Positions 1,679 through 52,113 of a stretch of DNA of 64,000 bases are shown here, in pieces; position 1 is the stretch's first letter, and every line of letters starts with the position of its first letter. The stretch spans positions 12,782-76,781 of the forward strand of contig CAZCUC010000003.1 in assembly GCA_964502225.1 (NCBI GenBank), written 5' to 3'. Made by a program: the position numbers and the translations under genes. Under the pieces are notes generated by a model. The model saw only the letters and a list, made by a program, of their open reading frames with translations, had not been told where the DNA came from and made no database searches. The stretch comes from an uncultured Pseudomonadales bacterium. Lineage in GTDB: Bacteria > Patescibacteriota > Microgenomatia > UBA1400 > UBA12108.

Positions 1679-4242
1679 GGGTTAGCCGAAGGGGAGGCAC
1701 TAGGTGCGACAAAGTCCCAGTTCACGTTTACTCCAATCCTCACAGTCGTATCACGCTCCTCACCATCCTTGGTCCTCACGACCCCTTTCAGTTCATGTGT
1801 TTTGTTGTCATCCACGGTGATGGTCGTACTCACTAGCTTTTCTCCTCCAAACGTTTCTCGCTGGTTTCCATCCACCAGTAGCTTTATCCACTCGATTTCT
1901 TTACTAGTTGTCACTCTCAGCCTCACTTCAAAAGTGTTGCTATTCAATTTTTCATGGTCGCCCGGCTTTTCAAAGCCTATGACTGTCTGGGTATTGCTCG
2001 CACAGTATTCTGTTGGGACCTTAAATTTGTCATTACTTTGACCATCAATCCAGGCTCGTATGTCGTTCTGCCAAGCGTTACTTTCTTGTTTCAAAACATA
2101 AAATTCCTTCAAATCGTAATCGTCACGTGCGATATCCACTTCACTAGCCAATTTATTATTATCAGCCTTGCATACTTTTACTTTTGTGTGGATCGGATCA
2201 GGCTCAGTCGGCGCAGTCCCTTTGGTAAAATAATCAGCCCTCGAGGGGTAGCCATCGTGCTCAGGGTAGCCAGATATTGTATCTACTTGGCGTGCCTCTA
2301 CACCACTAGGCGGTTTAAAATCATCGCCTTTATATTTTTCCCACGTCTTCAAAATTATTTTTCGCCAAATAGGGGAGGCACCAGTTACACCAGATGCTAC
2401 TTCCTTCATTGCAGTATTGTCATTATTGCCAACCCACACCCCAACCACAGCTTTTGTGCTCCACCCCACAGTCCAGTTATCTCGCTTATCATTGGTCGTA
2501 CCGGTTTTGACTGCGATCGATTTACCGGCCATATTCAAAAAACTATTCGAGCCAAAGGTCAGGAGTCGTGCGTTGTTGTCCGCCAACACATGATTGATCA
2601 AGAATGCCACTTCTTCACTCAGTACTCGCTGTTTCTGTGCCTGTTTGGCTTCGTACAGTGTCCGACCATTCTTAGTCACTTTTAGGATCGAAACCGGCTC
2701 GACTTTTTCCCCTCCATTTGCAAAAGCGCTATACGCATGCACCAAATCAAACAGTTTCACTTCACCCCCACCTAGTGTGACCGACAAGCCAAACCTCGAC
2801 ATATTTGCGGCTGTAGGCTCGAGGGTTTCAAACCCCATGTCATAGGCAGTCTGCAACATATCTTTTAGCCCAATCAGCGACAGTAGTTTTACGGCCGGGA
2901 TATTGAGCGAAGAACCTAGGGCATATCGCAGTTGGATCGGACCATTAAACTTGCCATCATAATTTTTTGGCTCGTAAAACTCTCCTTCTTTAGATCCGGG
3001 GAATTTGCTTGGTACATCGAGGAGCATAGAGGAGGGTGCATAGCCCTTGGCAAACGCGGTGGCATATGTCACTGGTTTGATGGCAGATCCAGGCTGGCGG
3101 AGCGACATCACCACATTGACTTGGCCATCGTAGTCAGGCGCAAAATAATCTTTAGATCCGACCATGGCCAGGATCTCGCCATTTTGTGGGTTCATCACCA
3201 TCGCGGCGCCGTTTGTGACGTGCACTTTTTCTAGTTTATCGATTTCTTCTTTGACCGCTGTCTGGGTAAAGTCTTGCAGTTCCGAGTCTAGTGTTGTCAT
3301 CACGGTATATCCACCCTCTTCAACCACAGCTTCTCCAAGCAGATCTACCAGCTGATCTTTCACATAAAACACAAAATGAGGTGCCTTTAGTGCCGCCGTT
3401 TGCTCTCTAAACTTTACTTCCGGTAGTTCTTTGAGGCTTTGATTCTCTTGTTCCTTGGTGATATAGCCATCCTCCCTCATCCGTCTCAATACTGCTGTCG
3501 ATCTCGCCACGTATGCTTGCTTATCGCTCCCGTACGGGGAGTATCGTGAAGGGGCTTGGGGCATACCAGCTAGTATTACTGCTTGAGTGAGCGTCAAATC
3601 CTTTGGCTCAACCCCAAAATATCTCTCCGAGGCCGAGGCTATCCCGATCGCAGTCCCTCCGTAGGGGGCTTCGTTTAGATACATTTGGAGTATTTCGTCC
3701 TTACTAAACTTATTCTCGATCTGCATCGACAATACGAGCTCTTTAAACTTGCGCGGTAGTGACCGCTCGCTGGTCAAAAGGACATTTTTCACTAGTTGCT
3801 GGGTCAAGGTCGATCCACCCTGGGCTCTACCGCGGGTGATCCCTCTGAGCATTCCCCGGATCATTCCCCAGGTACTAAAACCTTGGTGCGAGTAAAACTC
3901 TTTGTCCTCTATCGCAATCGTAGCTTGCTGTAGTTGGAGGGGAACATCTGCTATTTTGATCGGGATCCGGTTGTAATCTTGGTACAGTTCATACAGTGTT
4001 GCCCCATCTCTGTCCTCGATCTTGGTCGAAAATCCATCATGTCTCACAATTTTGTCTGGATCTGGCAAACTCCGGGAGAACCAGGCGAACATAATCAATG
4101 TAATTACAATCGCCCCCAGTGTCCCAAACAAGGCCGTGAGACCCAAATACTTCAAAATAGTTTGTTTATCCCACTTTGCGTGTGAATAACGATTTCTCTT
4201 CCCCTGGATCCGCTGTTTAAATGTTCTCGCCCAATCTTGCAT
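1675..4242 (-). CDS. class A penicillin-binding protein (transglycosylase/transpeptidase) with about 200 aa C-terminal extension
   Basis: N-terminal TM anchor; GT51 motif IAIEDKEFYSHQGFS; transpeptidase SAIKP (SxxK) and KTGTT motifs; long C-terminal tail after the TP domain. Confidence 0.85.
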   Translation of the reverse strand: MQDWARTFKQRIQGKRNRYSHAKWDKQTILKYLGLTALFGTLGAIVITLIMFAWFSRSLPDPDKIVRHDGFSTKIEDRDGATLYELYQDYNRIPIKIADVPLQLQQATIAIEDKEFYSHQGFSTWGMIRGMLRGITRGRAQGGSTLTQQLVKNVLLTSERSLPRKFKELVLSMQIENKFSKDEILQMYLNEAPYGGTAIGIASASERYFGVEPKDLTLTQAVILAGMPQAPSRYSPYGSDKQAYVARSTAVLRRMREDGYITKEQENQSLKELPEVKFREQTAALKAPHFVFYVKDQLVDLLGEAVVEEGGYTVMTTLDSELQDFTQTAVKEEIDKLEKVHVTNGAAMVMNPQNGEILAMVGSKDYFAPDYDGQVNVVMSLRQPGSAIKPVTYATAFAKGYAPSSMLLDVPSKFPGSKEGEFYEPKNYDGKFNGPIQLRYALGSSLNIPAVKLLSLIGLKDMLQTAYDMGFETLEPTAANMSRFGLSVTLGGGEVKLFDLVHAYSAFANGGEKVEPVSILKVTKNGRTLYEAKQAQKQRVLSEEVAFLINHVLADNNARLLTFGSNSFLNMAGKSIAVKTGTTNDKRDNWTVGWSTKAVVGVWVGNNDNTAMKEVASGVTGASPIWRKIILKTWEKYKGDDFKPPSGVEARQVDTISGYPEHDGYPSRADYFTKGTAPTEPDPIHTKVKVCKADNNKLASEVDIARDDYDLKEFYVLKQESNAWQNDIRAWIDGQSNDKFKVPTEYCASNTQTVIGFEKPGDHEKLNSNTFEVRLRVTTSKEIEWIKLLVDGNQRETFGGEKLVSTTITVDDNKTHELKGVVRTKDGEERDTTVRIGVNVNWDFVAPSASPSANP

Positions 4243-4945: not shown

Positions 4946-5935
4946 ATGAAATCTATCGAAATCGAACTCGACAAAGCTTGGGAAAAGGCGCGGTCTTTTC
5001 CAGGCGAGCTAAAACTGTTAGGGCCAAACGATCTGGACTCTGACAGAATAGCAGGCATTTTTAGAGATTTATTGGAAAGGACCTACATTCGTCACGGGGT
5101 ACCACAACATGCGGATGAGTTTTCATCAGCTATCCGCGCTGGGCAAATAGAGCCATGTATTGTCACTCGTGATAACCAGCCGGTCGCTTGCGCCGCCTTG
5201 ATTAAACAAAGCGACGGGACAAGTGAACTTGGTCGTGCAGTCTCTGTCGAACCTGGTACCGGAGCCGGTAAGATCGCTATGCTCACGGCCACGCTCTCTG
5301 CAGGCACCTCGCCACTCGTTGCAGAAATCAGACTCGCAAAAACCTTTGCCGGAATACCAGGAGGCGAAGCTACTCAGCGTATCTGTCACGGGATTCTAGG
5401 ACTTGCAGTACACGCAATATTGCCCCCATTTAGACATGGCCGTCACCCAATTTCTGGGACTAAATACAACGAAATGTTTGGCTTTGCAGCTGAAAATGTT
5501 CAAATCATCGATTCAAGTCCATTGTCCACTGCAAACCAAGCGATTTCCACTCGGATAGACTCATTAACTCCAGTCAAAGATATGCAGCTGATGCAAGTCG
5601 ATCCATTTAAAATCGCTGTGCCTGTTAATTCAGGTATAAATATAAAAGATTTTCAGCGAGAAAGTAGATTTGGCGACCCTGGATGCACCATGACCGCCCT
5701 AGAAGCAAATGACCAAAACCTCTCTACTATTGCCTGGCTCATGGCACATGATTTTATCTTATCTGGAGTTGATCGCAACTTAGGAGAGAATGGGCTCCCA
5801 GTCCTACTCCTAGCCACACTCGCCCACGGGACCATGCTGGCACCAACCAAAGCAAGCGATACACTACCTCAACAGCTTAGAGCAGATATTTTACACATTA
5901 GTAGCCAATTTAATCAGTTAGTTGAAAGGAGTTAA
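4946..5935 (+). CDS. hypothetical protein: N-terminal GNAT-like acyltransferase fold fused to a C-terminal domain of unknown function
   Basis: ATG at 4946 preceded by AAGGA (the ORF-track start at 4904 is less likely). Segment VSVEPGTGAGKIAMLTATL resembles GNAT motif A (V-x-P-x-x-G-x-G); the remaining roughly 200 aa were not recognised. Confidence 0.45.
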   Translation: MKSIEIELDKAWEKARSFPGELKLLGPNDLDSDRIAGIFRDLLERTYIRHGVPQHADEFSSAIRAGQIEPCIVTRDNQPVACAALIKQSDGTSELGRAVSVEPGTGAGKIAMLTATLSAGTSPLVAEIRLAKTFAGIPGGEATQRICHGILGLAVHAILPPFRHGRHPISGTKYNEMFGFAAENVQIIDSSPLSTANQAISTRIDSLTPVKDMQLMQVDPFKIAVPVNSGINIKDFQRESRFGDPGCTMTALEANDQNLSTIAWLMAHDFILSGVDRNLGENGLPVLLLATLAHGTMLAPTKASDTLPQQLRADILHISSQFNQLVERS

Positions 5936-5936
5936 T

Positions 5937-6977
5937 ATGACATTGCTCACAATACTAGAAGAGTTAATTAAAGCAAAGACTCTCTCAGAAGATCGCAAAA
6001 CTTGTTTGGACACGCTCAAAAAGATCCAACCACAAATTCCAAACTCAGTTATAGATACTAAATCTGGAATTCTACTTTGGGGACATACAAACCTCGCTAC
6101 AACATCATGGTTGATCAATACTCACCTTGATGTAGTTCCAGGTAGTCCAAAACAATTTTCTCTCAAAATAAAAGGGGACAAAGCTTGGGGTAGAGGGGTA
6201 GCCGACGTAAAGGGTTGCGCCGCCATCCTTATTGACCAAGCAAAAAAATGGACAGGACTAGCCATACAAAAGAAAGTAACATTTATGCTGGTCACGGACG
6301 AAGAGGTCGGTGGAGCTAGCACCAAAGCCATATTATCTACCATGAAAGATTTGCAGGGTGCCATCTTTCTCGAACCCACTGGACTCCACATTACCACAGA
6401 GGCGAAAGGAATGATGCAAATAAAGATTGTAGCTAAAGGAGTCAGTTGTCACGGCTCACGTCCATGGGAAGGGGATAACGCGATCGAGATGCTTGCGCGA
6501 GGACTTGTCCAATTTCGCCTGACTCAACCTACTCCTACTCAAGAAACCCGAACCACTACGCTCAATTTTTCTCAAATCAAAGGTGGTGAAGCAATCAATC
6601 AAGTTCCTAGCTTTGCTGAGCTTTGGTGTGACGTGAGATTTAATCCTCAAGATAATCCAGCGGACATCGTTACTGAAATAGTCGCTTGTTTCCCTTCATG
6701 TGAAGTGGTAGTGGTCAAATGTGATTCACCCATCAACTGCGATAAGTCGACTAAAGTATTTGAGTCCGTTGTACGCGCTGTAAAGTCAGTCTCGATCAAT
6801 CCACTCACGCAGTTTGACCACGGTACGTCGGATGCCAGGCACGCAACCGCTCTGGGTATACCAGCGCTCGTTTTTGGCCCAAAAGGTGGAGGGCTTCACA
6901 GCGATCACGAATGGGTCAGTTTAAAAAGCCTAATCAAAGTACAAAACGTCCTCGATCACTGGATTAAAAATATTTGA
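5937..6977 (+). CDS. M20 family metallopeptidase / deacylase (ArgE/DapE type)
   Basis: HLDVVPG and GRGVADVKG M20 signatures. ATG at 5937 preceded by AAAGGAG (the ORF-track TTG at 5922 is rejected). Confidence 0.75.
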   Translation: MTLLTILEELIKAKTLSEDRKTCLDTLKKIQPQIPNSVIDTKSGILLWGHTNLATTSWLINTHLDVVPGSPKQFSLKIKGDKAWGRGVADVKGCAAILIDQAKKWTGLAIQKKVTFMLVTDEEVGGASTKAILSTMKDLQGAIFLEPTGLHITTEAKGMMQIKIVAKGVSCHGSRPWEGDNAIEMLARGLVQFRLTQPTPTQETRTTTLNFSQIKGGEAINQVPSFAELWCDVRFNPQDNPADIVTEIVACFPSCEVVVVKCDSPINCDKSTKVFESVVRAVKSVSINPLTQFDHGTSDARHATALGIPALVFGPKGGGLHSDHEWVSLKSLIKVQNVLDHWIKNI

Positions 6978-6996: not shown

Positions 6997-8187
6997 ATGA
7001 CCAATACAAACGATATTTTAACCAGGGGAGTAGAAAACATTATCCCAAGTAAAGCTAAGCTACAGGAGCTCCTAGATAGTGGCAAAAAGCTCAATATCTT
7101 CCTTGGCATCGACCCCACCGCCACCCGTATTCATATTGGGCATGCCGTTCCACTACGCAAATTAAATGAGCTAGCTGGGCTCGGTCACAACGTCAAATTC
7201 TTGATCGGAGACTTTACCGCATTGATTGGCGACACCTCCGACAAAGATACCGAGCGTCCAGTCCTGACGAGCGAACAAATCCAAGCCAATTTTGAAACCT
7301 ACAAAAAACAAGCCGAAAAAGTGGTCGATTTTAGCAAAATCGAAGTCGTCCACAACTCTACCTGGCTCAAAGAGCTCAAGTTCGAAGATATAGTCAAGCT
7401 CGCCCAGCATTTCTCGGCCGGTGACTTTACCAGTCGCGAGCTCATCAAAAAACGACTTACCGAAGGTAAACACGTCGGTCTCCACGAACTTCTCTATCCT
7501 GTCATGCAGGGATACGATAGCTACTTTATGGATACCGATATCCAACTCGGTGGTACCGACCAGACCTTCAACATGCAAGCAGGTCGCATACTCCAAAAAG
7601 ATTTACGGGGCAAAGAATCATTTATCATCGCCAACGGTTTCCTATCAGGCACCGATGGCCGCAAAATGAGCAAATCTTGGGGTAATGCTATCTGGCTAGA
7701 TGATGATCCTATTGAAATGTACGGCAAGGTCATGTCCCTCAAAGACGATTTGATCATCAACTACTTCACACTCGCGACTGCACTATCTCTAGAAGAGATC
7801 GGTCAGATCGAAGCCAAGCTCAAAGCTGGCGATAACCCCATGACTTTCAAAAAACAGTTGGCCCACAGGGTCGTCACCGAGCTCCACAGTAGTGAACTGG
7901 CCGAGTCTGCTCAAAAACACTTTGAAAGTACCGTCCAAAAGAAGGAAGTTCCAGACGAAGTTGAAGAGTTCTTTACTCCCTTAAATGAATTAAAATCTCA
8001 TTTTGATGTACTCAAAACGGCTAACACAGGTTTTAGCAACAGCGATCTCAAGAGATTAGCTGCACAAGGAGCAATTTTATTTAATACTACAAAAACGCTT
8101 ACTGACCTGTCAGAAGAATACACCTTCACTGGCGGTGAAATTTACCAGTTGGGTAAGCGTACTTTCAGAAAGGTAAAAGGAAAATAG
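6997..8187 (+). CDS. tyrS: tyrosine--tRNA ligase
   Basis: Class I HIGH motif (RIHIGHAVPL), GDFTALIGDTSDKDTER, QLGGTDQTFN, KMSKS, C-terminal S4-like domain. The pattern fits TyrRS better than TrpRS. Confidence 0.75.
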   Translation: MTNTNDILTRGVENIIPSKAKLQELLDSGKKLNIFLGIDPTATRIHIGHAVPLRKLNELAGLGHNVKFLIGDFTALIGDTSDKDTERPVLTSEQIQANFETYKKQAEKVVDFSKIEVVHNSTWLKELKFEDIVKLAQHFSAGDFTSRELIKKRLTEGKHVGLHELLYPVMQGYDSYFMDTDIQLGGTDQTFNMQAGRILQKDLRGKESFIIANGFLSGTDGRKMSKSWGNAIWLDDDPIEMYGKVMSLKDDLIINYFTLATALSLEEIGQIEAKLKAGDNPMTFKKQLAHRVVTELHSSELAESAQKHFESTVQKKEVPDEVEEFFTPLNELKSHFDVLKTANTGFSNSDLKRLAAQGAILFNTTKTLTDLSEEYTFTGGEIYQLGKRTFRKVKGK

Positions 8188-8319: not shown

Positions 8320-10236
8320 ATGCAACTCAAAGACATTGCGGGCATTGGCGAAAAAACTCTCAGTATTCTCGAAAAGCACGGGATCACCACTATTCATGGG
8401 CTCCTCACACATTTTCCGCGCACCTATCGCACTTACAGATCGACCGATACTCAGGGGGCAGAGGTAGGGGAGTGGGTCAGTTTAGTCGGTACGCTCAGCC
8501 GCCCAGTCAGCCATCACACAACCCACACGACCACTCAGATCTCGACTTTCCAGGACGGGTCGGGCCGTCTTACTCTCCGCTGGTTCAATAGTCCCTTTAT
8601 TGTCAGGTCAGTCTCCCCAAGCGATACTTATTTAGTTCGTGGTCAGCTTACGATCTTTGGCAGTACCCGCCAAATTGTCTCTCCCCAAATCAAAGCAGTA
8701 GGGCCAGACTATTATCCGCCCGAAAACGATGAAATGGTCCCCATTTATCCGAGTCTCGGCATGCTCAAGTCCGGTAACTTACGCAAAATTATTTTTTCTG
8801 CACTCGAGAGCACACCACCGTTTGAGGATCCACTCTCGCCAAAAATTCGACTCAAACATAATTTGATTGATCTAGATACCGCCATGCACCTCATCCATCG
8901 TCCACCTTCAAGGAGTCTCCTTGAAGGTGCGATCCATCGTCTTGCCTTTGACGAGCTCTATACCCTCCAGCTAGAAAGTTTGCAAAACAGCGAGATAAAT
9001 AAAATCAAAACTGATCCTCTCCACTGGAACACGGCAAAACTGGAAAACTGGGTTACGAATCTCCCCTATACTCCAACTGGAGCCCAATCTCGTGTAATTG
9101 GTGAGATTCTCGCAGATTTATCCAAACCAATCGCCATGCACCGCTTACTGGCAGGAGAGGTCGGATCAGGCAAAACCTTGGTAGCGGCCGCCGCCATTTT
9201 TGCCTCATTCCATGCTGGATACCAATCACTCGTCATGGCACCTACCCAGATCCTCGCTGAGCAACTCTATGCATCCTTTAAACAATTGCTGGGTGACACC
9301 CTCGCAATCTCCTTGGTTACCGCCAGTTCGAAAGGTGACGTTCAGGCAGATGTGGTCGTGGGTACCCAGGCACTCCTGACTCCCAAGCACACTTTCGGTA
9401 AAGTTGGTCTCGTGATCGTCGACGAACAGCACAAATTCGGGGTCAAACAAAGAGAATATCTCAGTAGCCTGACTCCCGCCCCTCACGTGCTCATGATGAC
9501 CGCGACTCCGATTCCCCGTACTCTCGCCATGACCATTTTCTCCAATATGGATATCTCTCGGCTCGACGAGCTCCCCAAAAATCGTCTCCCCATCAAAACC
9601 TACCTAGTAGGAGAGGAAAAGCGAGACCGAGCCTTCTCCTGGATCAAATCCGAAATCGTAAACAATCATAACCAAGCATTTGTCGTGGTTCCCCTGATCG
9701 AGGAAGCCGAAGATGACGAGGGCAATAGCAAAAAATCCCTCAAACTCCTCGAGACCGATCTCAAAAAACGTTTCCCAGGGTTAATCATCGACATTATGCA
9801 CGGCAAAATGAAGGATACAGAGAAAACCGAGCACTTGCGCGCGTTTCGCGACGGGATTACTCAGATCCTGGTCGCAACCAGCATGGTCGAAGTGGGTATC
9901 GATATCCCTGGTGCCAATATTATGGTCATCGAGGACAGCGAAAGGTTTGGTCTCGCCCAGCTCCACCAGTTGAGGGGTAGGGTGGGGAGGGGATCTACTC
10001 AGGGGCATTGTCTAATTTTTACTGGTTCAGACAAACCCAAGGTCAAAGAGCGACTTACCTATTTTGCCAAAGAGATAAACGGAGAGAAACTTGCGATGTA
10101 CGATCTGGACAACCGTGGACCCGGCGAGCTCTTTGGCGAGTCCCAGTCCGGTTTCTTCTCTCTCCACTTTGCCTCGATCTACGATACTGCTTTATTGAAA
10201 GAAACCTACGAAGCTGTTAGAATACACTCCATATGA
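8320..10236 (+). CDS. recG: ATP-dependent DNA helicase RecG
   Basis: Walker A GSGKTLVAAAAIF, DEQHKFG box, QLRGRVGRG motif, N-terminal wedge region. Confidence 0.85.
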   Translation: MQLKDIAGIGEKTLSILEKHGITTIHGLLTHFPRTYRTYRSTDTQGAEVGEWVSLVGTLSRPVSHHTTHTTTQISTFQDGSGRLTLRWFNSPFIVRSVSPSDTYLVRGQLTIFGSTRQIVSPQIKAVGPDYYPPENDEMVPIYPSLGMLKSGNLRKIIFSALESTPPFEDPLSPKIRLKHNLIDLDTAMHLIHRPPSRSLLEGAIHRLAFDELYTLQLESLQNSEINKIKTDPLHWNTAKLENWVTNLPYTPTGAQSRVIGEILADLSKPIAMHRLLAGEVGSGKTLVAAAAIFASFHAGYQSLVMAPTQILAEQLYASFKQLLGDTLAISLVTASSKGDVQADVVVGTQALLTPKHTFGKVGLVIVDEQHKFGVKQREYLSSLTPAPHVLMMTATPIPRTLAMTIFSNMDISRLDELPKNRLPIKTYLVGEEKRDRAFSWIKSEIVNNHNQAFVVVPLIEEAEDDEGNSKKSLKLLETDLKKRFPGLIIDIMHGKMKDTEKTEHLRAFRDGITQILVATSMVEVGIDIPGANIMVIEDSERFGLAQLHQLRGRVGRGSTQGHCLIFTGSDKPKVKERLTYFAKEINGEKLAMYDLDNRGPGELFGESQSGFFSLHFASIYDTALLKETYEAVRIHSI

Positions 10237-18061: not shown

Positions 18062-18836
18062 TTTGATCACCAAACAACAGCGCAATCACAATCCCCGACG
18101 TCATAAACGGGACAAACGGGACATTGTCTTTCCTGGTCTTTACTCCACTCACTATGAGCAAGATCCCAATCACCGCGCCTAGCACAAAACTAGCTAGTAA
18201 GGCGACGAGCCCTTTTGGCCACCCAAGCAAGATACCCATATACATCGCGACGTACATATCACCCTCTGCCATCCCTCGTCCTTTAGTCATCTTATACAAA
18301 GCCCAAAATCCAGCATAAAAAATCGCCCCTACCACTATACTCACCGCCAAATCTCTGGGGTTATAAGCCTGGTAATACCACAAAACCAACCGGTACAAAG
18401 CAACCAGCAAACTCCCAATCCAGACAATATTTAGCAGTACTACTCCATAAAATAAATCTGCCACAGTCAAAATCGCGAGGATTATGCCGCTCATCAACCA
18501 AAAACCTGGCTGGATAATTGTCAAAGGCGCACTAACCAATCTAAAAAACCAAAACCCGACTGCGAGCCACCACACAAACAACAGCCCCACCATCATCTCG
18601 ACAATTGGGTAACGGTAGGAGAGGGGAGAGTGACAACAGCGGCTCTTCCCCCGGTATACCATAAAACTCACAATCGGGATCAGGTCATACCAAGCAAGCG
18701 TTTTCCGACAGTAATCACAGTGCGATCTCCCCGATACCCAGTTCTCATCCTTCATGGTTCGATCAATCAAAACGTTTACAAAACTTCCGATCGCACTACC
18801 CAAAAAAAATGTGAGAATGAAATACATCATTCTCAC
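18042..18836 (-). CDS. pilD: prepilin peptidase (A24 family)
   Basis: Polytopic membrane protein with the cytoplasmic zinc motif C-x-x-C...C-x-x-C (CCHSP...CDYCRK) and conserved Asp-containing loops. Confidence 0.8.
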   Translation of the reverse strand: MRMMYFILTFFLGSAIGSFVNVLIDRTMKDENWVSGRSHCDYCRKTLAWYDLIPIVSFMVYRGKSRCCHSPLSYRYPIVEMMVGLLFVWWLAVGFWFFRLVSAPLTIIQPGFWLMSGIILAILTVADLFYGVVLLNIVWIGSLLVALYRLVLWYYQAYNPRDLAVSIVVGAIFYAGFWALYKMTKGRGMAEGDMYVAMYMGILLGWPKGLVALLASFVLGAVIGILLIVSGVKTRKDNVPFVPFMTSGIVIALLFGDQIIGFLG

Positions 18837-18879
18837 ATTCTATCCTAGTATCTCAAATCTAGCACCTAAAATCTTAGAA

Positions 18880-28003: not shown

Positions 28004-30784
28004 ATGGCCGATGAATCGATCTTGAAACCATTGGACTTGACCGACGAGACTGCGGAGCTGTCGTCGGTCCTCGACGAACCCGGCGATTCTGCTCCCACAA
28101 TTGAGCCAAATGAGCCTAATTCGGCAAATTTGGCTAATTCTTCCGACGTGGTTTCATCCGATCGCACCTCATTCCTCACTGTCGGTGCCCAAAAGCCTTG
28201 GGACATCGAGGAAACCAAGTTTGGCAAGATCGCGACCGTTGGTGTGGTAGACGAGATGAAAAAGTCCTACCTCGACTACGCCATGTCAGTCATCGTCTCT
28301 CGTGCCCTGCCAGACGCCCGCGATGGGCTCAAGCCCGTCCACCGTCGTATCCTCTTTGGCATGAAAGAACTCGCTCTCTTGCCACCTGCCAAATACAAGA
28401 AATGTGCTCGTATCGTTGGAGAAGTATTGGGTAAGTACCACCCCCACGGTGACACTGCCGTTTACGACGCTTTAGCTCGTCTAGCCCAAGATTTCTCTAT
28501 GCGTTACATGCTCGTGGATGGCCAGGGCAACTTCGGTTCTGTTGACGGTGACTCACCTGCCGCCATGCGTTACACCGAAGCTAGACTTGCCAAAATCACC
28601 GGAGAAATCCTCGCTGATTTAGACAAAGATACTGTGGACTGGATCGACAACTTTGACGGCACTTTCCAGGAGCCAACTGTCATGCCAGCCAAGCTCCCCA
28701 ATCTCTTGCTCATGGGCTCTGATGGTATTGCGGTCGGTATGGCCACCAAGATCCCCACCCACAACATTGGCGAGATCATCGACGCCGTCATCACTCTCAT
28801 CAAAAAAGGTGACTCACCCCGTGAAACCGAAATCAAAGACGACATCGGCATCGAATCTCGCCCCTACAAAGAACTAACCGGCGACTTCACCTCAGAAGCT
28901 ACTGTGGATGATTTGTTGGAAAGTGTCCAAGGACCCGATTTCCCCACTGGCGGTGTGATCTACGACGCCGAAGCTATCCGTGAGGTTTATGCTACCGGTA
29001 AGGGTAGGGTAGTAACAAGGGCAGTCGCCGAGATCGAAGAAACCAAATCCGGCAAATTCCAGATTGTGGTCACCGAAATCCCGTACCAGGTCAACAAAGC
29101 CAAATTGATCCAGCGCATCGCCGATCTTGTCCGCGACAAAAAACTCGATGGCATCTCCGACCTACGTGATGAGTCCGACCGCGAGGGTATGCGGATCGTG
29201 ATCGAACTAAAGAAAGCTTCTAAACCCAAATCAGTTTTAAATAATCTCTACAAACACACGGAACTGCAAAATAGCTTCCCCGCCAACATGGTCGCGCTCG
29301 ACGAGCAGGGCACGCCTCACCTCATGAACTTAAAAACCATCCTCGGTCACTACGTCAAACATCGCCAGACCGTGATCGTCCGCCGCTCACAATTCGAGCT
29401 CAAGGAAAATCGGGCGCGTATCCACATTTTAGAAGGCTATATTAAAGCGTTAGATCACCTGGACGAAGTCATCAAAACTATCCGTGCCAGCAAGGATACC
29501 GAAGAAGCCAAGGCCCAGCTCATCAAAAAGTTCGGCTTTAGCGAGATCCAAGCCGTCGCCATTCTCGACATGCAACTGCGCCGTCTCTCCGCGCTCGAAC
29601 GTAAAAAAATCGAAGACGAATACAACGCTCTCATGGTCCGTATCAACGAGCTTTTGGCACTACTCAAAGATCCCAAAGCGATCCTCTCCACGATCACCAA
29701 AGAACTCAATGAGCTCAAAGAGATCTACGGTGACCCTCGCAAAACCAAAGTCATCAAAGGTAAGCTCGGCGAGTTTAGTGAAGAAGATCTAGTCGCCGCC
29801 GAAGACAATTTGGTCGCAATTACGAGGGACGGCTATGTCAAACGCATGCCTCTCTCTACCTACCGCACTCAGCGCCGTGGAGGTAAGGGAGTCGTAGGTA
29901 TGACCACCAAAGATACCGACGAGATCCTCCACATGACGGTCGCCAATACCCACGATTTTGCGCTCTTCTTCACCAATACGGGCAAGGTCTACAGTATGCG
30001 AGTATTTGAACTCCCAGAGGGTAGTCGTACCGCCAAAGGGCAGGCCATCATCAATCTCCTCAATATCGAACAAGGCGAAATGGTTCAAGCTGTCTTGGCC
30101 GTCAACAAAGACTTACTCAAAGACAAAGGTCACTTTATCACCATGGCCACCTCAAATGGCATGATCAAAAAAACTCCGCTCTCTGAGTATGAAAGTATTA
30201 GGCAGAGCGGCAAGATCGGCATCTCTCTGCGCGATAATGACCAGCTCATCAAAGTCGAGATCAGCCACGGCCAAAACTACATTATCTTGGTTACCAAAGG
30301 CGGCAAATCCATCAAGTTCAAAGAAACCGACGTGACTGCAACCGGTCGCGACACCATGGGCGTAAAGGGTATGACTTTGAAAGCCGGCGACGCTGTAATT
30401 GCCATGGAAACCGTCGAGATTACCCCACCCAAGCCAGATGACAAAAGACGCAAGTTCTTCCGCGAGATCTTGGCTGTCACCGAGCACGGACTAGGAAAAC
30501 GTACCGACGTAGGCGAGTATCCCGAACAAAAGCGGGGAGGCCAGGGTGTCAAAGTCGCCGAGCTCTCTGAGCGCACGGGTGATATCGCCGCTGTTCGCAT
30601 GGTCACAGAAGACGATGAACAAGTCGTGATCACCACCAAGCAAGCCCAGGTCATTAAACTGCCACTCAAAAACATCAAAGTCCTCGGCCGCTCCACCCAG
30701 GGTGTCATCCTCATGCGCCCCGCCTCTGGCGACGTCGTCACTTCCGTGACCACCCTCCAGGACGCCGAGGAAGAGGAAGTATAA
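28004..30784 (+). CDS. gyrA: DNA gyrase subunit A with about 65 aa low-complexity N-terminal extension
   Basis: ATG directly abuts the ppa stop (TAAATG). The conserved core starts near [40 protein letters not shown]-terminal beta-pinwheel repeats and an acidic tail. Confidence 0.9.
28103..28138 (+). repeat. tandem 9-bp repeat, 4 units (GAGCCAAAT GAGCCTAAT TCGGCAAAT TTGGCTAAT), in frame in the gyrA N-terminal extension
   Basis: Seen directly; encodes [12 protein letters not shown]. Matches the 25439-25474 copy at 28 of 31 nt. Confidence 0.8.
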
Positions 30785-31221
30785 TGAAACAAGCAATTGT
30801 AGCTTGCGCCATTATTCATCAAAAAATTGGTAATGAAATTAAAATTCTTTTAACTAAGAGAACACTGACTGCTAACTTTCTACCTGGTATTTATGAAATT
30901 CCCGGCGGACATATTGAATACGGAGAAGAGTTAGTCGCTGGGCTAGAAAGAGAACTACAGGAAGAATTAAATCTCTCGGTAAAAGTGGGTGAATTATTCA
31001 CTGCTTTTACTTATCTACACAACGATACCCATACTGTCGAACTAGCATATTTCGCAAGTCCAACATCAGACATCAAACATATTAAAGTTAAGGAAGATGA
31101 GATATCCGAAAGTCGCTGGATCAATGAAAGTGAAATTGAAACAATAGTATCAGCAAACAAAAAACCAGACGATCCAGAAATTAGTATTCTAAAAAATGCA
31201 TTTAAGAAACTATCATTATGA
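30784..31221 (+). CDS. NUDIX hydrolase
   Basis: Nudix box GGHIEYGEELVAGLERELQEELNL. The gene is markedly AT-rich compared with its neighbours. Confidence 0.8.
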   Translation: MKQAIVACAIIHQKIGNEIKILLTKRTLTANFLPGIYEIPGGHIEYGEELVAGLERELQEELNLSVKVGELFTAFTYLHNDTHTVELAYFASPTSDIKHIKVKEDEISESRWINESEIETIVSANKKPDDPEISILKNAFKKLSL

Positions 31222-31670
31222 CTACAATTTTTGAATCAACCAATTTTATCGTCGAGCCACATCCAAGACCAGAAGTGGACAGACTTGATGGGGGACATAT
31301 CGTCATCAACCCCAAAGTCAAGATCGAGGATCGCCAGCAGTTAACTCCCGACCAAGCCAAGGAAATGATACGACTTACAATTCTGGTAGGCGAGGCGATG
31401 AAGCGGTACTACAAATCTATCGGGATCGAGCTTCACCGCGTTAATTATCAAGACAATGGCAACTGGCGTCCAGAGCAACATTACCATCTATACGGTCGTG
31501 CCAAAACCGCCAAATATCAAAAAGCTGGCGATCCCATTATTCCCGGCCACAAAGATGAATACCAAAATCTTACGGCCAACGACGTAGCCGGCCTCCAAAG
31601 AGAAATCACTCAGCTCCTCACCGAACCAAATTACTCCGACACTTCCTGGGGATTCTCTCTAACTCAATAG
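31218..31670 (+). CDS. HIT-superfamily-like protein with a variant triad (QHYHLYG)
   Basis: FIVEP...GHIVINPK...RVNYQDNG...QHYHLYGR follows the HIT fold pattern but only two of the three triad histidines are present. Confidence 0.45.
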   Translation: MTTIFESTNFIVEPHPRPEVDRLDGGHIVINPKVKIEDRQQLTPDQAKEMIRLTILVGEAMKRYYKSIGIELHRVNYQDNGNWRPEQHYHLYGRAKTAKYQKAGDPIIPGHKDEYQNLTANDVAGLQREITQLLTEPNYSDTSWGFSLTQ

Positions 31671-31674
31671 GTTC

Positions 31675-31690
31675 AATGGTTCGAACCATT
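31675..31690. repeat. 16-bp perfect palindrome AATGGTTCGAACCATT
   Basis: Seen directly, 4 nt after the HIT-like stop; shares the 14-bp core ATGGTTCGAACCAT with the two 26-bp palindromes downstream. Confidence 0.85.
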
Positions 31691-31822
31691 AGGCCTTTGT
31701 GTATTAATTATTTGAATCATCGATACAAGTTAATATCGTGATTCGAATTATGGTAGTAACTAGTATCTGTAAAGATTTTTTATATCTCCTGACTACCTAG
31801 AATAGGATATAATCCCACAATT

Positions 31823-32218
31823 ATGGAAGTTATTAAAAACGGCCAAGGTTCCCTGGAATTTAGCTATGAAAACGGCTTTATCCACATCCAGAACATTTAT
31901 GTTGGTGGAAAAAGAAGTGTTGGAAATGGTAGAGATCTGTTAGTAAAGTTTATAGAACAAGTGGGTAGGAATCAAAAAATTAGCGGGGAAATTGCACATC
32001 AAGAGACAGTTGCTATGTTGTATTCAATTTATGGCCAGCTAGCCATCGCGCAACCCAATACTTTGATCGCAATCCGAGAAATTGCAACTCTCCCCATTGT
32101 CCAAATTTTTGCTTCTGCTGAAATTGTCATTTCGGCAGTAGCACTAATCTACGTGCCAGAAATACAATCAGAGGATATCCACGAACGGTTTCACCGGCCC
32201 TTTTCAGGTCACACTTAA
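31823..32218 (+). CDS. small GNAT-like acetyltransferase-fold protein
   Basis: VGGKRSVGNGRDLL resembles the GNAT motif A (R-x-x-G-x-G/A). Confidence 0.35.
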   Translation: MEVIKNGQGSLEFSYENGFIHIQNIYVGGKRSVGNGRDLLVKFIEQVGRNQKISGEIAHQETVAMLYSIYGQLAIAQPNTLIAIREIATLPIVQIFASAEIVISAVALIYVPEIQSEDIHERFHRPFSGHT

Positions 32219-32247
32219 AAAGACAATGCTCAAGCTATAATAGCGTT

Positions 32248-32751
32248 ATGACAATCTCAATCCAAGACTACGACGCAACGGCCCCGCAACTATTTGAAGA
32301 GGCGAGGGGAGTGCTGCAAAATTTATTACCCGATGCCGAGATTCACCATGTCGGCAGTACCTCGATCCCAGGATTGGGCGGCAAAGGGATTATCGATATC
32401 ATGGTCGCAATTCCAGACTGGAAAACCAAAGCGCAGGATGGCAAAAAATTGGTGGAGCTCGGGTTTGCCCACGTCCACCCCGAGGAGAACGGTCGCATTT
32501 TTATGAGCAGGGTAGGGGAGACAGTGAAAAACGACGTCCACCTTCACCTCACCTATATCGGCAGTACCGAATACAAAAAAATGCTCGCATTCCGCGATTA
32601 TCTACGCTCACATCCCGACGAAGCTGAAAATTATCAGAAGCAAAAGCACCAGTGGCTCAAATCTGCCAGTGGTCACCGCCAGTTTTACACCGCCTCCAAA
32701 AACGACTACATTGCACAAATCCTCTCACTCGCTAAATCAGATCTATCTTAA
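32248..32751 (+). CDS. GrpB / UPF0157 family nucleotidyltransferase-fold protein
   Basis: IHHVGSTSIPGLGGKGIIDIMV is the GrpB family hallmark. Confidence 0.65.
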   Translation: MTISIQDYDATAPQLFEEARGVLQNLLPDAEIHHVGSTSIPGLGGKGIIDIMVAIPDWKTKAQDGKKLVELGFAHVHPEENGRIFMSRVGETVKNDVHLHLTYIGSTEYKKMLAFRDYLRSHPDEAENYQKQKHQWLKSASGHRQFYTASKNDYIAQILSLAKSDLS

Positions 32752-32757
32752 CCTAAC

Positions 32758-32783
32758 GGTTCGATGGTTCGAACCATCGAACC
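32758..32783. repeat. 26-bp perfect palindrome GGTTCGATGGTTCGAACCATCGAACC
   Basis: Seen directly; 7 nt after the GrpB stop and 44 nt upstream of the TrpR-like gene. Confidence 0.9.
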
Positions 32784-32826
32784 ATCCCAATTCGTGGCAA
32801 CTTCTCGGTTGTGATACTATCATTTT

Positions 32827-33132
32827 ATGCCACCAGTTTCTTATCGCAAACTCCCTGAGGAAATGTATAACCATCTTGTCAGCATCCTCATTCAAGTATT
32901 ATCCACAACCAACCAGACAAAAAGTGGTTTGCTGTTTGTCAATAAATTCCTATCATCCAGCGAGCTAACTATGCTAGCCAAGCGAGTAGGTATAGCACTT
33001 CTGCTCAAGCGTGGCTATACATATAGATCCGTCATGGATTACCTCAAAGTCAGTAAGGGCACGGTAGCAAAAGTGGCTGAAATAATTCATAGCAACGACC
33101 AAGAATCACAAAGTATTTTAAACAAATCATAA
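32827..33132 (+). CDS. TrpR/YerC-like helix-turn-helix protein
   Basis: SSELTMLAKRVGIALLLKRGYTYRSVMDYLKVSKGTVAKV is the Trp-repressor-like HTH pattern. Confidence 0.55.
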   Translation: MPPVSYRKLPEEMYNHLVSILIQVLSTTNQTKSGLLFVNKFLSSSELTMLAKRVGIALLLKRGYTYRSVMDYLKVSKGTVAKVAEIIHSNDQESQSILNKS

Positions 33133-33188
33133 CCAACAAACAAATAGGTGAAGTCCTTTCCAAATTTGATTACTATCTAGATAAACTC

Positions 33189-33208
33189 TTGCCACCAAAG
33201 GGTGGCAA
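33189..33208 (+). other. hairpin TTGCCACC-AAAG-GGTGGCAA downstream of the TrpR-like gene
   Basis: 8-bp stem with a 4-nt loop; no U-tract follows, so terminator function is uncertain. Confidence 0.3.
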
Positions 33209-33276
33209 CTGGCATGAATGGAGAATAAGAATAGAAGATAAACGAAGAAAGTCGGAAAGACCAATCTGAGAAATCC

Positions 33277-33302
33277 GGTTCGATGGTTCGAACCATCGAA
33301 CC
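33277..33302. repeat. 26-bp perfect palindrome GGTTCGATGGTTCGAACCATCGAACC, second identical copy
   Basis: Seen directly; 27 nt upstream of the cdd start. Confidence 0.9.
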
Positions 33303-33328
33303 TATTCTTTCTCTGCTAGAATTGTTCT

Positions 33329-33835
33329 ATGACACTCAGCGACTTATCCTGGATAGTTAGCACAAAAGATTCACAAACAGAACTCAACTGGATCAAGGCA
33401 GAAATAGAGCGGATAGGGCAGGGGAGTTTAGAAAAATTAGCCCAGGCCGCAACTGAGCAGAGTAAACATGCCTACGTCCCATACTCCCATTATCAGGTCG
33501 GGGTCGCCATCCTCACCAAATCCGGCAAAACCTATCTAGGCAACAACGTAGAGCGTGCCAGTTACAGCGAGACCGACCACGCCGAAGAATCAGCCATAAC
33601 TGGAGCCGTGGTAGATGGGGAAGTAGGTCGTAGTGGGCGCAAATTTCTCGTCGCTCTAGCCTGTTCCCACGCGGGCGACACCGCGCCCTGCGGTAGATGT
33701 CGCCAAATTATGATGGAGCATGCTGACAACTGTCTCGTTCTAACCGTCGATGTCGACGGGAAAATTCGTCGTATCACTTCGCTAAAGACCTTGCTCCCGT
33801 ACGCATTCTCACCCACCGACCTCGGGATAGAGTAA
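33329..33835 (+). CDS. cdd: cytidine deaminase
   Basis: AYVPYSHYQVGVAIL, zinc motif HAEESAI, PCGRCRQIMMEH. Confidence 0.8.
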   Translation: MTLSDLSWIVSTKDSQTELNWIKAEIERIGQGSLEKLAQAATEQSKHAYVPYSHYQVGVAILTKSGKTYLGNNVERASYSETDHAEESAITGAVVDGEVGRSGRKFLVALACSHAGDTAPCGRCRQIMMEHADNCLVLTVDVDGKIRRITSLKTLLPYAFSPTDLGIE

Positions 33836-33890
33836 CACTTCTAAAATCATATCTTGATAAACTGTTCTATATATAGTAAAGTAATGAGAT

Positions 33891-34406
33891 GTGAGTGAAT
33901 ATGTCTCTAAAGTACGCTCGTTAACTAATGAACAATTACAGTTACGTTTTCAATCAGTACTTCAAAGAAGTAGTTTTTTTGCAGAAATCGATGCACAAAT
34001 TGTCAGAGAGCTAGATGCCAATACCAGGTTAGGGCGCAACCCTTTGGATCAAGCAAAGCATGCACTACTTAAGCAGTACAACCTAGACACAATTCCCTCT
34101 CCTATAGAGAAATTTTTAGAAGCTATGTTTATGGCTCCGACTTCCGCCAAACCAATGATGATAGACGCACTTCGCGAAGCCGTAGACAATCTTGAACATT
34201 ATCCTGATCCTCCAACCATCATCCAGTTTCTATTAGCAACCTCCAAGGAAGAAGCAAGAATTCTTAGTCGTCAAAGTGCAATTCAGCAAGTTACAGATAA
34301 CGCTGAAGCAATTCGACGTGAAGCTATAGCCCAGGTCACTCATAACATGGGTTATTGCTCTGAATCTAAGTCTTCTCCAGCTCAAGTCAACAACCCATGG
34401 AAGTGA
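33891..34406 (+). CDS. hypothetical protein
   Basis: 171 aa ORF with a GTG start; helical, no recognised motif. Confidence 0.4.
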   Translation: MSEYVSKVRSLTNEQLQLRFQSVLQRSSFFAEIDAQIVRELDANTRLGRNPLDQAKHALLKQYNLDTIPSPIEKFLEAMFMAPTSAKPMMIDALREAVDNLEHYPDPPTIIQFLLATSKEEARILSRQSAIQQVTDNAEAIRREAIAQVTHNMGYCSESKSSPAQVNNPWK

Positions 34407-37640: not shown

Positions 37641-37900
37641 TGACCGATTCTCGCAAATTTTCTCTCCTAGCCAAACTCAGTAGTCTCGATGCCGAATCCA
37701 AATTATTACCTAGGCGATTAGAGATTCTCCTCACAATCCGCGACCACTCCCCCTGCAGTCTCGACTTTTTACAAAGGAATTTTGTGGGCACACCAGGGAG
37801 CACTCTTCGCTACGATTTACTCAAGCTCCAGCAGACAGGACTCATCCAAAAGCTCGGGGTCACCCGCGGAGCTCTTTACTCTGCCTCTCCCACCGAGTGA
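37640..37900 (+). CDS. small winged-helix DNA-binding protein (hypothetical)
   Basis: 86 aa; C-terminal STLRYDLLKLQQTGLIQKLGVTRGALY resembles a wHTH recognition helix and wing; convergent 25-nt overlap with the recombinase gene; no SD. Confidence 0.4.
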   Translation: MTDSRKFSLLAKLSSLDAESKLLPRRLEILLTIRDHSPCSLDFLQRNFVGTPGSTLRYDLLKLQQTGLIQKLGVTRGALYSASPTE

Positions 37901-38838
37901 TACTTTTCATGCACACTTTTTAGTTGCGGGTTGGTCACGTGGGTATAGATCTGTGTGGTCGCGATATTCTTGTGTCCTAGCATTTCCTGGACCTCACGTA
38001 GCCCTGCGCCGTGACTGATGAGATCAGTAGCAAAGCTATGCCTCATCACGTGGGGTGTAATCGAGTACGGCAGGTGCGCCAGGCGTCCATATTTAGCGAT
38101 GATGCGCTGGACAGTCCTCACATTCAGTCTCAGTTTCTCTCCAGCTTTGGGATCGTCGATCTCGGGCTTGGCTCCGCTATGGCGGATAAAGACGGGGTGG
38201 TAGTGATCATCTCGCTCACGCAAATATTTATCTATCCACTGTGCCGCCCGGTCGGACAGGAAAACTACCCGGATTTTTCTACCTTTACCCATCACCCCGA
38301 ACTCACGAGATTCTAAATTAATCGTAGTCTTGTTCAGTGACACCAGCTCCGATACCCGCAATCCAGTCGAGAAAAGAGTTTCCATAATCACTCTATCTCG
38401 CAATCCTTGGATATTGGATATATCCGCCTTTTCTATCATCGCTTCCACATGTGAATAATCCAAGAACTTGAGCGAATGCTCCTTGCCTTTGGGTAGTTCT
38501 AGTCGCTCCGGAGAGACTACTTCATAATCCTGCCTCAGCAGATACCGGAGCATCGATCTTAGTGCGATTACATAATATCCCTGGGTGACAGGCGAGAGAT
38601 ATTCACCTTTATCATTTTTATGTTGCGCCAAAAAGACACGGTAGGTCTTCAACATCTTAGAGGTCACGTCGCTCAATTCTTTGTCTGGATAATACTTACC
38701 CAACCAAGTGGAAAACTTTAATAGGTAAAATCGATAATTGCGAATCGTAAAAGGAGACACCTGTCGCTCGATTGTGAGGTACTCGAGGTACTCTTCAATG
38801 CAGGCCTGGAGTGTTGGAGTACTACCCTTAGCACTCAT
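37876..38838 (-). CDS. tyrosine site-specific recombinase (XerC/XerD type)
   Basis: C-terminal HVMRHSFATDLISHGAGLREVQEMLGHKNIATTQIYTHV (R...H-x-x-R...Y catalytic box); N-terminal SAM-like domain; 320 aa. Confidence 0.85.
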   Translation of the reverse strand: MSAKGSTPTLQACIEEYLEYLTIERQVSPFTIRNYRFYLLKFSTWLGKYYPDKELSDVTSKMLKTYRVFLAQHKNDKGEYLSPVTQGYYVIALRSMLRYLLRQDYEVVSPERLELPKGKEHSLKFLDYSHVEAMIEKADISNIQGLRDRVIMETLFSTGLRVSELVSLNKTTINLESREFGVMGKGRKIRVVFLSDRAAQWIDKYLRERDDHYHPVFIRHSGAKPEIDDPKAGEKLRLNVRTVQRIIAKYGRLAHLPYSITPHVMRHSFATDLISHGAGLREVQEMLGHKNIATTQIYTHVTNPQLKSVHEKYHSVGEAE

Positions 38839-51788: not shown

Positions 51789-52105
51789 GCTATAATAAGT
51801 CCATGGCCGCTTCTTATCCCGATCAACACATGCAAAAACTCTTGAGTGCTCTCTCCACGCTCAAAACACCAGCGGAACTCGCGCTTTTCTTGCGCGATCT
51901 CATGACAGTCAAAGAGCTCAAAGATATCTCCCAAAGGTGGCAAATAGTCCTACTGCTAGAGCAAAAGCTCCCTTATCTAGAGATAGCCAAGCAAGTCGGG
52001 GTTTCCACGACTACAGTCACTCGCGTCGCCCTGTGGCTCAATCACGGCCAGGGTGGCTACAAAACAGCTCTCGCGCGTTTGCGCACAATCAACAAAAGTG
52101 CTTAA
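51785..52105 (+). CDS. TrpR-like protein, YerC/YecD family
   Basis: LFLRDLMTVKELKDISQRWQIVLLLEQKLPYLEIAKQVGVSTTTVTRVALWLNHGQGGY matches the YerC/YecD pattern. Confidence 0.7.
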   Translation: MSYNKSMAASYPDQHMQKLLSALSTLKTPAELALFLRDLMTVKELKDISQRWQIVLLLEQKLPYLEIAKQVGVSTTTVTRVALWLNHGQGGYKTALARLRTINKSA

Positions 52106-52113
52106 CTATAACC

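Follow-up and report, generated by a model that had tools for sequence, protein, structure and literature searches.

The window analysed here comprises 64,000 nucleotides (nt) of contig CAZCUC010000003.1 (assembly GCA_964502225.1), from an uncultured bacterium of the Patescibacteria, or Candidate Phyla Radiation (CPR). The GyrB of the window shares a 90% cluster with a "Microgenomates group bacterium" protein. The core genes gyrA and ddl enclose an island of small genes, among them one for a helix-turn-helix (HTH) protein of the TrpR/YerC family, and three copies of a palindrome that is 26 nt long where it is perfect. Two of the copies flank the TrpR-like gene. Based on sequence comparisons between genomes, the palindromes are probably binding sites of this protein.

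Table 1. Features of the gyrA-ddl island, palindrome copies inside open reading frames (ORFs), and gene orders in the window and in relatives (L-numbers, loci compared; aa, amino acids; pal, palindrome; Prx, peroxiredoxin; HK/RR, histidine kinase/response regulator; unk, gene without Pfam match; GT2, family 2 glycosyltransferase)
Locus	Feature	Position	Strand	Remark
Window	NUDIX	30784-31221	+	Pfam; translationally coupled to gyrA
Window	HIT	31218-31670	+	Pfam; coupled to gyrA with NUDIX; transcription unit ends at first palindrome
Window	Degenerate palindrome copy GGTTCAATGGTTCGAACCATTAGGCC	31670-31695	.	perfect 16-nt core at 31675-31690
Window	Segment with 131-aa gene and GrpB	31696-32757	+	missing from closest relative, L048
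Window	131-aa gene (unk131)	31823-32218	+	no Pfam match
Window	Perfect 26-nt palindrome	32758-32783	.	starts 6 nt past GrpB stop
Window	Extended -10, TGaTACTAT	32812-32820	+	6 nt before TrpR-like ATG; putative leaderless promoter (sequence pattern)
Window	TrpR/YerC-family gene	32827-33269	+	147 aa in relatives; frameshifted in window
Window	Perfect 26-nt palindrome	33277-33302	.	starts 7 nt past true TrpR-like stop (TGA 33267-33269)
Window	-10 box, TAGAAT	33317-33322	+	6 nt before cdd ATG
Window	Cytidine deaminase (cdd)	33329-33835	+	Pfam
Window	171-aa gene (unk171)	33891-34406	+	no Pfam match
Window	XerC/D-like tyrosine recombinase	37876-38838	-	syntenic in relatives; candidate only if palindromes are recombination sites
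L032	Palindrome in purB	6259-6284		in frame
L034	Palindrome in leuD	889-914		in frame
L042	Palindrome in GT2 gene	5302-5327		in frame
L033	Palindrome in GT2 gene	8438-8463		in frame
L005	Palindrome in GT2 gene	3169-3194		in frame
L023	Palindrome at AlaX-like/PheS domain junction	3358-3383		in frame
Window	Gene order			gyrA-NUDIX-HIT-pal'-unk131-GrpB-pal-TrpR-pal-cdd-unk171-ddl
L048	Gene order			HIT-pal-TrpR-pal-cdd
L056	Gene order			gyrA-orf187-HIT-pal(A/B)-GrpB-pal
L051	Gene order			gyrA-orf221-HIT-pal'-orf213-NUDIX-pal-TrpR-pal''
L052	Gene order			HIT-pal-TrpR-pal(B/B)-(HK/RR)
L013	Gene order			gyrA-pal'-TrpR-pal-GrpB-pal-ddl
L039	Gene order			gyrA-orf99-pal-hpt(reversed)-pal'-TrpR-Prx-ddl
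L043	Gene order			gyrA-cupin-orf54-pal-TrpR-hpt-ddl
L045	Gene order			gyrA-pal-TrpR-pal(split by 21 nt)-...-ddl

Palindromes and genes between gyrA and ddl

The perfect 26-mer GGTTCGATGGTTCGAACCATCGAACC is present in two identical copies, where shuffled sequences gave an expectation of 0 matches. Its 14-nt core, ATGGTTCGAACCAT, was found exactly three times in the window against 0.22 expected, a count reached by none of 100 shuffles. The remaining, degenerate copy shares the final base of the HIT stop codon, and its right arm is of a recurrent type, B (ATTAGRYY). The same A'/B' form recurs at the 3' end of the orthologous HIT gene in two relatives (L051 and L056). An earlier inspection of the letters of the window (the sequence-only reading) had given the coordinates and sequences of all three palindromes exactly, including the shared 14-nt core, and had rightly judged a perfect 26-mer to be unlikely by chance.

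Each 26-mer includes three TCGA (TaqI-type) tetramers and one TTCGAA site, and is stop-free in all six reading frames. Its GAAC(T/C) half-sites are spaced by 8 bp. TrpR recognizes GNACT half-sites and binds in tandem at 8-bp offsets; by analogy, GAAC(C/T) at 8-bp spacing would allow two overlapping dimers, with a half-site orientation unlike that of the E. coli trp operator. It may be speculated that methylation of the TCGA sites by a resident restriction-modification system could modulate any protein binding.

The sites had been described as lying ahead of genes, and the distances of 44 nt to the HTH gene and 27 nt to cdd are correct, the next starts being indeed downstream. The palindromes stand equally behind genes. 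Because the TrpR-like gene is longer than had been called, all three begin 0 to 7 nt past a stop codon (0, 6 and 7 nt after those of HIT, GrpB and the TrpR-like gene, respectively). The first is separated by 140 nt from the next start codon, and its promoter-side arm is degenerate. The centre of the second lies 56.5 nt upstream of the TrpR-like start, and as RNA it forms a hairpin of -19.1 kcal/mol (z -4.2). The third is followed by a T-rich tail, with 14 nt between its end and the cdd -10 box. The perfect copies fold as RNA into hairpins of 11 bp with 4-nt loops (-19 to -23 kcal/mol, z -4 to -6). One of the three window copies was called terminator-like, with a T-rich tail, and such tails are found at about one third of all copies.

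The size of 100 aa given for the HTH protein in the sequence-only reading had to be revised, as homologues have 147 aa and the frame in the window is broken by a 1-nt deletion. One A is lost from an AAAA run at 33124-33126, which results in a premature TAA at 33130-33132; the last 45 residues are encoded in a different frame, which runs to the TGA at 33267-33269. None of the 147-aa homologues shares this frameshift, and the palindromes on both sides have stayed perfect. In the closest relative (L048, 92% nt identity) the gene is intact. Either the gene has recently become a pseudogene or the assembly is wrong in the homopolymer; the circuit in the window may be inactive unless the latter applies.

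Even the shortened 101-aa ORF matched PF01371 (Trp_repressor) with 39.1 bits against a cut-off of 27, and this domain is present in all homologues; an exact look-up of the shortened ORF returned no match. A profile search of solved structures gave 3KOR (3.5e-12), 3G1C (6e-11) and 3FRW (7e-11), with E. coli TrpR at about 0.01. For the AlphaFold2 model (pLDDT 72), the top Foldseek matches were 1TRR, 3KOR and 1TRO, with a probability of about 1 and a TM score (target) of 0.6, at an E-value of only 0.2; the best fold match is thus to TrpR (1TRR). The 147-aa protein (TrpR147) is a bona fide member of PF01371, closest to the YerC/HisR-like proteins 3KOR, 3G1C and 3FRW. Its clade possesses a conserved 45-aa C-terminal helical extension (LPPKG..W..WR) which is absent from canonical YerC proteins. 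A second TrpR-family gene in the window, at 51804-52106 (+), encodes a canonical YerC-like protein of 100 aa with the recognition helix VSTTTVTRV. Its ATG is preceded at 6 nt by TATAAT, the intergenic distance is only 15 nt, and no palindrome lies nearby.

Putative -10 boxes of the pattern TAnnnT, situated 5 to 9 nt (mostly 6 to 7 nt) ahead of the start codon and often preceded by TG, were identified at 25 of the 58 window genes, where about 6 would be expected; most of the other genes have GGAG-type Shine-Dalgarno sites. The placement of these boxes right before start codons implies widespread leaderless mRNAs. Within the island the 131-aa gene, GrpB, the TrpR-like gene, cdd and the 171-aa gene each have their own -10 box, as does ddl. 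From this promoter map and the stop positions, the palindromes are placed at the ends of three successive transcription units, just upstream of the next promoters.

The NUDIX, HIT, GrpB, Trp_repressor, cytidine deaminase and Ddl assignments were all confirmed by Pfam. The label "GNAT-like" for the 131-aa gene was not, since Pfam gave nothing for it even at E<=1. The cdd and 171-aa genes are the last variable genes ahead of ddl. Two other perfect 13-bp inverted repeats in the window, at 8903-8929 and 18808-18839 (1- and 6-nt spacers), are unrelated in sequence to the palindrome family. A replication origin or terminus site was rejected, GC skew being negative throughout the 64 kb with no inflection. 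A known RNA family was likewise rejected, the only Rfam match in the window being a tRNA-Leu. The idea of a DNA-uptake sequence was set aside, because the copy number is far too low.

Linkage of the palindrome to TrpR-like genes

The palindrome was searched for by DNA pattern alone. Among the 22 distinct copies in the loci retrieved, four directly abut a TrpR-like gene (three loci: L013, L035 and L040), where well under 0.1 would be expected by chance given one or two TrpR-like genes per genome. The tie between palindrome and TrpR/YerC-like genes that the sequence-only reading had proposed is borne out by these counts. In all 12 lineages with upstream sequence (the window, L013, L039, L040, L043, L045, L047, L048, L051, L052, L053 and L054), a palindrome is located 37 to 57 nt before the leaderless TrpR-like start. 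It is kept whichever neighbour precedes the gene, be it GrpB, gyrA, HIT, NUDIX or a divergently transcribed gene. Past the TrpR-like stop, at a distance of 4 to 14 nt, there is another copy in the window, L013, L035, L040, L048 and L054, and a modified one in L045, L051 and L052.

The association extends to distant proteins. The L040 protein, of the Parcubacteria YerC/YecD-type clade, is only 29% identical, and a perfect copy of the 26-mer stands on each side of its gene; the recognition-helix pattern S-[KR]-G-T-[IV]-A-[KR]-V is common to this protein and TrpR147. The Parcubacteria YerC-like protein P0072 (L058) has the helix G-K-T-T-I-A-H-V, and its gene is flanked by a different 24-nt inverted repeat, TGTATATGGTACTTATCATATACA, in identical direct copies at 7965-7988 and 8333-8356. 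Site sequence co-varies with the recognition helix, a contrast that comes from this single lineage. In its ends (TGTA...TACA), the L058 repeat is similar to motifs of TrpR and of proteobacterial HisR that are given in PMC9413887. The second copy in L058 also lies upstream of an alanyl-tRNA-synthetase-like gene.

Locus L055, on a 964-kb contig with about 78% nt identity, has the order gyrA-HIT-GrpB-Prx-ddl, with neither a TrpR-like gene nor a canonical palindrome in the island; the whole contig appears to be without a TrpR147 gene (37 TrpR147 clusters compared). Taken together, the linkage, its depth in L040, the co-variation in P0072 and the absence in L055 make a cognate protein-site pair the most economical reading.

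A genome scan with one genome per species returned 26 loci, of which about 11 match [A/G]GTTCGATGGTTCGAACCATCGAAC[T/C] over its whole length; the others seem to be chance matches to the core. The true matches include Woesebacteria, "Patescibacteria group" and unclassified metagenome-assembled genomes (MAGs), with 1 to 4 copies per genome. A metagenome scan added 16 further loci. A phage or virus origin was rejected, as the 22-mer of the palindrome was not found in viral contigs (IMG/VR). The related MAG JBDRPO01 has four pattern matches and one degenerate copy, and with three copies in the 64 kb of the window the palindrome is not the generic genome-wide repeat that would have spoken against the sequence-only reading. 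No mention of the 14-nt core was found in the literature searched.

Comparison of 29 distinct copies revealed that the conserved block stops sharply at 26 nt, with R...Y ends, and that complementarity of the flanking pairs 2 to 8 outside it is at chance level. A systematic extension of the hairpin past 26 nt was therefore rejected, and the sharp limit together with the chance-level flank pairing indicates a constraint on the sequence, not only on the stem. The site consists of arms of 10 to 11 bp around a TTCGAA/TCGA centre, with outer arms in two discrete forms, A (RGTTCGAT) and B (RGTCTAAT). A/A, A/B and B/B sites all occur; the A/B hybrids disrupt the outer stem yet recur. The B arm (TAGACT) was considered as a -35 box and rejected, its spacing to the -10 box varying from 11 to 25 nt. 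A GC-rich insertion of 21 nt interrupts the palindrome that follows the TrpR-like gene of L045 (3241-3290; GGTTCGATGGTTCGAACC-tgcctcgcgtcaaggcgggcc-ATCGAACC).

Other perfect 26-nt palindromes at gene 3' ends share the centre ATGrTTCGAAyCAT, their copies differing by compensatory changes. A third 26-nt type, ACTACGAT[G/A]ATTCGAAT[C/T]ATCGTAGT, was observed at L021 6947-6972 and L024 6868-6893, both in one MAG that also has three canonical copies; the two are one compensatory pair apart. A second palindrome family with the core GATAYAATGATTTAAATCATTRTATC (L055 15762-15793 and 16312-16345; L030 1215-1242) overlaps the stop codons of HIT, GrpB and NUDIX and is identical between unrelated contigs. 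In L056 the canonical palindrome is directly followed by an imperfect relative of this family, CAATGATTTGAATCAT, of which a more decayed form is seen at about 31700-31727 in the window. For the AT-rich palindromes of L055, the alignment is ambiguous between orthologues with compensatory mutations and a canonical insertion of about 32 nt beside an older hairpin.

Probable autoregulation and its alternatives

The TrpR/YerC-family protein encoded next to the palindromes most likely binds them (probability about 0.65), and autoregulation is the best-supported function. The sequence and position of the sites, the family membership of the protein, and the co-occurrence and co-variation of the two across genomes are observed directly; from them we infer binding, the sign of regulation, a ligand and termination. 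Presumably dimeric, as TrpR and HisR are, the protein would recognise the copy that precedes its own leaderless promoter; the effect would probably be repression, the usual mode of the TrpR family. The copy after the gene overlies the -35 region of the next promoter, that of cdd here, and may co-regulate the neighbour. Based on their location directly after stop codons and their stable hairpins, the sites probably double as boundaries of transcription units, as terminators or insulators. Being identical repeats, they also mark where small genes of the island have come in, been lost or changed places.

This reading has precedents. TrpR-family proteins, including HisR, bind palindromes of about 20 bp and often autoregulate; YerC is the same protein as HisR, whose repression depends on histidine and whose palindromic operators measure 20 bp; it, too, often autoregulates (PMC9413887). 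As with HisR and TrpR, a small HTH protein of the TrpR fold is associated here with a dyad-symmetric site upstream of its own gene, and operator sequences are lineage-specific and track the protein (PMC9413887). Unlike these systems, the site has 26 bp rather than 18 to 20 bp, the protein carries the conserved C-terminal extension, and a second identical copy stands directly after the gene.

Several observations weigh against a simple operator. The gap from palindrome to -10 box ranges from 11 to 31 nt and the centres from -37.5 to -56.5, which is unusual for a fixed operator, and the site is longer than known TrpR/HisR operators. About seven copies (in L024, L028, L031, L039, L047 and L052) fill gaps between convergent genes, where no promoter is present, and about six canonical copies lie inside ORFs (Table 1). 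The latter use different reading frames without lengthening the proteins; an explanation of them as insertions is not supported, as the GT2 and LeuD proteins keep normal lengths. In P0025 (L047) the recognition helix is unchanged though the palindrome core differs at two symmetric positions. Other 26-nt palindrome types stand at gene 3' ends with no TrpR-like gene nearby, which points to a structure-level role as well. Neither trp nor his genes were found among the site neighbours, which are nucleotide-related hydrolases and other small genes (NUDIX, HIT, GrpB, cdd, hpt, peroxiredoxin). Binding is itself deduced from sequence comparison.

The autoregulator proposed in the sequence-only reading is thus upheld in part. 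The upstream site in 12 of 12 lineages fits autoregulation; the frameshift of the regulator in the window, the variable distance between palindrome and promoter and the copies between convergent genes and inside ORFs call for a revision of the simple model. The small regulon that had been proposed with it (the GNAT-like gene, the regulator itself, cdd and perhaps the upstream genes) is not supported, because each genome has other genes following the sites and no conserved or coherent regulon is seen.

The gyrA-ddl interval is hypervariable among relatives, and the variation of its gene content and order (Table 1) agrees with the earlier description of the block as accessory. The cassette that had been offered as an alternative gains support, since indel breakpoints among relatives fall at palindromes. 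The window and L048 cease to be homologous within palindromes (at positions 31689 and 32758), on either side of the segment that L048 lacks, and a 1166-nt indel between L030 and L009 begins exactly at a palindrome edge. Such a pattern fits recombination at the repeats, site-specific or homologous, and fits equally well an exchange via conserved flanks. That the TrpR-like protein and the 26-bp palindromes constitute a self-contained genome-plasticity system of CPR bacteria is unlikely. In such a system the palindromes would be hairpin-forming boundaries recognised by the protein, and would shuffle small nucleotide-salvage genes in a hotspot near gyrA, either as repetitive extragenic palindromic (REP)-like elements that spread or are homogenised without a REP-associated tyrosine transposase (RAYT), or through integron- or dif-module-like cassette recombination, perhaps by the Xer-like recombinase.

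A REP-like family would consist of dispersed 3'-end hairpins that some mechanism multiplies or homogenises, with the TrpR-like gene flanked by them as RAYT genes are by REPs and coding for their associated protein instead of a conventional regulator. Such an origin seems improbable, although short palindromes at gene 3' ends and an associated gene between two copies, found here in at least 8 lineages, are features of REP/RAYT systems. The copies that directly follow stops, also between convergent genes, would suit it, and so would the several sequence types with one 26-nt architecture whose copies within a genome differ by compensatory changes, the intact and decayed copies side by side at the HIT 3' end (L030, L056), and an element open in six frames with some copies within ORFs. 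REPs, by contrast, number tens to hundreds and are lineage-specific, whereas the palindrome has the very low copy number given above and is conserved across superphyla. The protein is a TrpR-family HTH and not an HUH/Y1 transposase, the copies in ORFs add no protein length, and the alignment of L055 with L056 shows no clear insertion.

It is quite improbable that the palindromes are recombination sites, site-specific or repeat-mediated, which delimit cassettes, perhaps by means of the Xer-like recombinase; the TrpR-like gene would then be a resident cassette or an accessory factor. Besides the breakpoints in L048 and L009, the slot of the missing segment is occupied in L051 by another cassette (orf213-NUDIX), GrpB with its palindrome precedes the TrpR-like gene in the window and follows it in L013, hpt is inverted between two sites in L039, and A/A, B/B and A/B arm hybrids exist. 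Repeated symmetric sites that separate small accessory genes (NUDIX, HIT, GrpB, hpt, cupin, peroxiredoxin), a gene content and order that vary among relatives with breakpoints at the sites, and a tyrosine recombinase nearby recall attC integrons and the pdif modules of Acinetobacter. The Xer-like gene is syntenic and 4.6 kb away; it is not linked to the palindrome elsewhere, no recombinase being linked to it outside the syntenic group, and there is no integron integrase (IntI). The 26-bp perfect palindrome differs from attC in length and form, attC sites having 55 to 140 bp and imperfect symmetry. Its architecture, with arms of 10 to 11 bp, is compatible with that of Xer/dif modules (about 28 bp, two 11-bp arms, 6-bp spacer), but it is unlike the dif consensus and no dif-like sequence is present. 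Further, every cassette gene has its own promoter, unlike integron genes, the L009 indel has a site at one end only, and the same patterns are explained by ordinary homologous recombination, be it between the 26-bp repeats or within flanking genes. Recombination also leaves unexplained why the TrpR-like gene is flanked in distant phyla and why the site co-varies.

The Xer-like gene itself appears to be interrupted by about 1.2 kb in one relative (L029 5332-7542 / L039 109-2319), where residues 1-272 and 264-318 match far apart by tblastn.

Plain bidirectional intrinsic terminators with an incidental link to the TrpR-like gene are very unlikely: the stable hairpins right after stops, the one terminator-like window copy, the filling of convergent-gene gaps and the other perfect palindromes of L055 at the same gene ends would all agree with them, but the sequence is identical across 29-100%-identical proteins and across CPR superphyla with conservation that stops exactly at 26 nt, A/B hybrids lose the outer stem, most copies have no T-rich tail, some lie inside ORFs, the site is between divergent genes upstream of the TrpR-like gene in L039 and L043, and it co-varies with the protein in L058.

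Meaning for CPR genomes

As a cognate operator, the 26-bp site would resemble CIRCE with HrcA and the NrdR boxes, long palindromic operators whose conservation spans phyla. CIRCE is active in RNA, too, where it forms a hairpin. The protein family is a different one, and unlike the fixed CIRCE and NrdR regulons (chaperones and ribonucleotide reductases, respectively), none is fixed here.

Almost no transcription factors or operator motifs have been characterised in the CPR/Patescibacteria. The 147-aa TrpR/YerC-like protein and its exactly defined 26-bp site, conserved from Microgenomates to Parcubacteria, offer a testable pair. The site adjoins genes of the nucleotide-salvage type, on which auxotrophic CPR organisms depend, and it marks breakpoints of a hypervariable island between core genes, which provides a handle on the exchange of accessory genes in reduced genomes. 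Should the sites turn out to do more than an operator does, a new kind of partnership between a repeat and a protein would be at hand.

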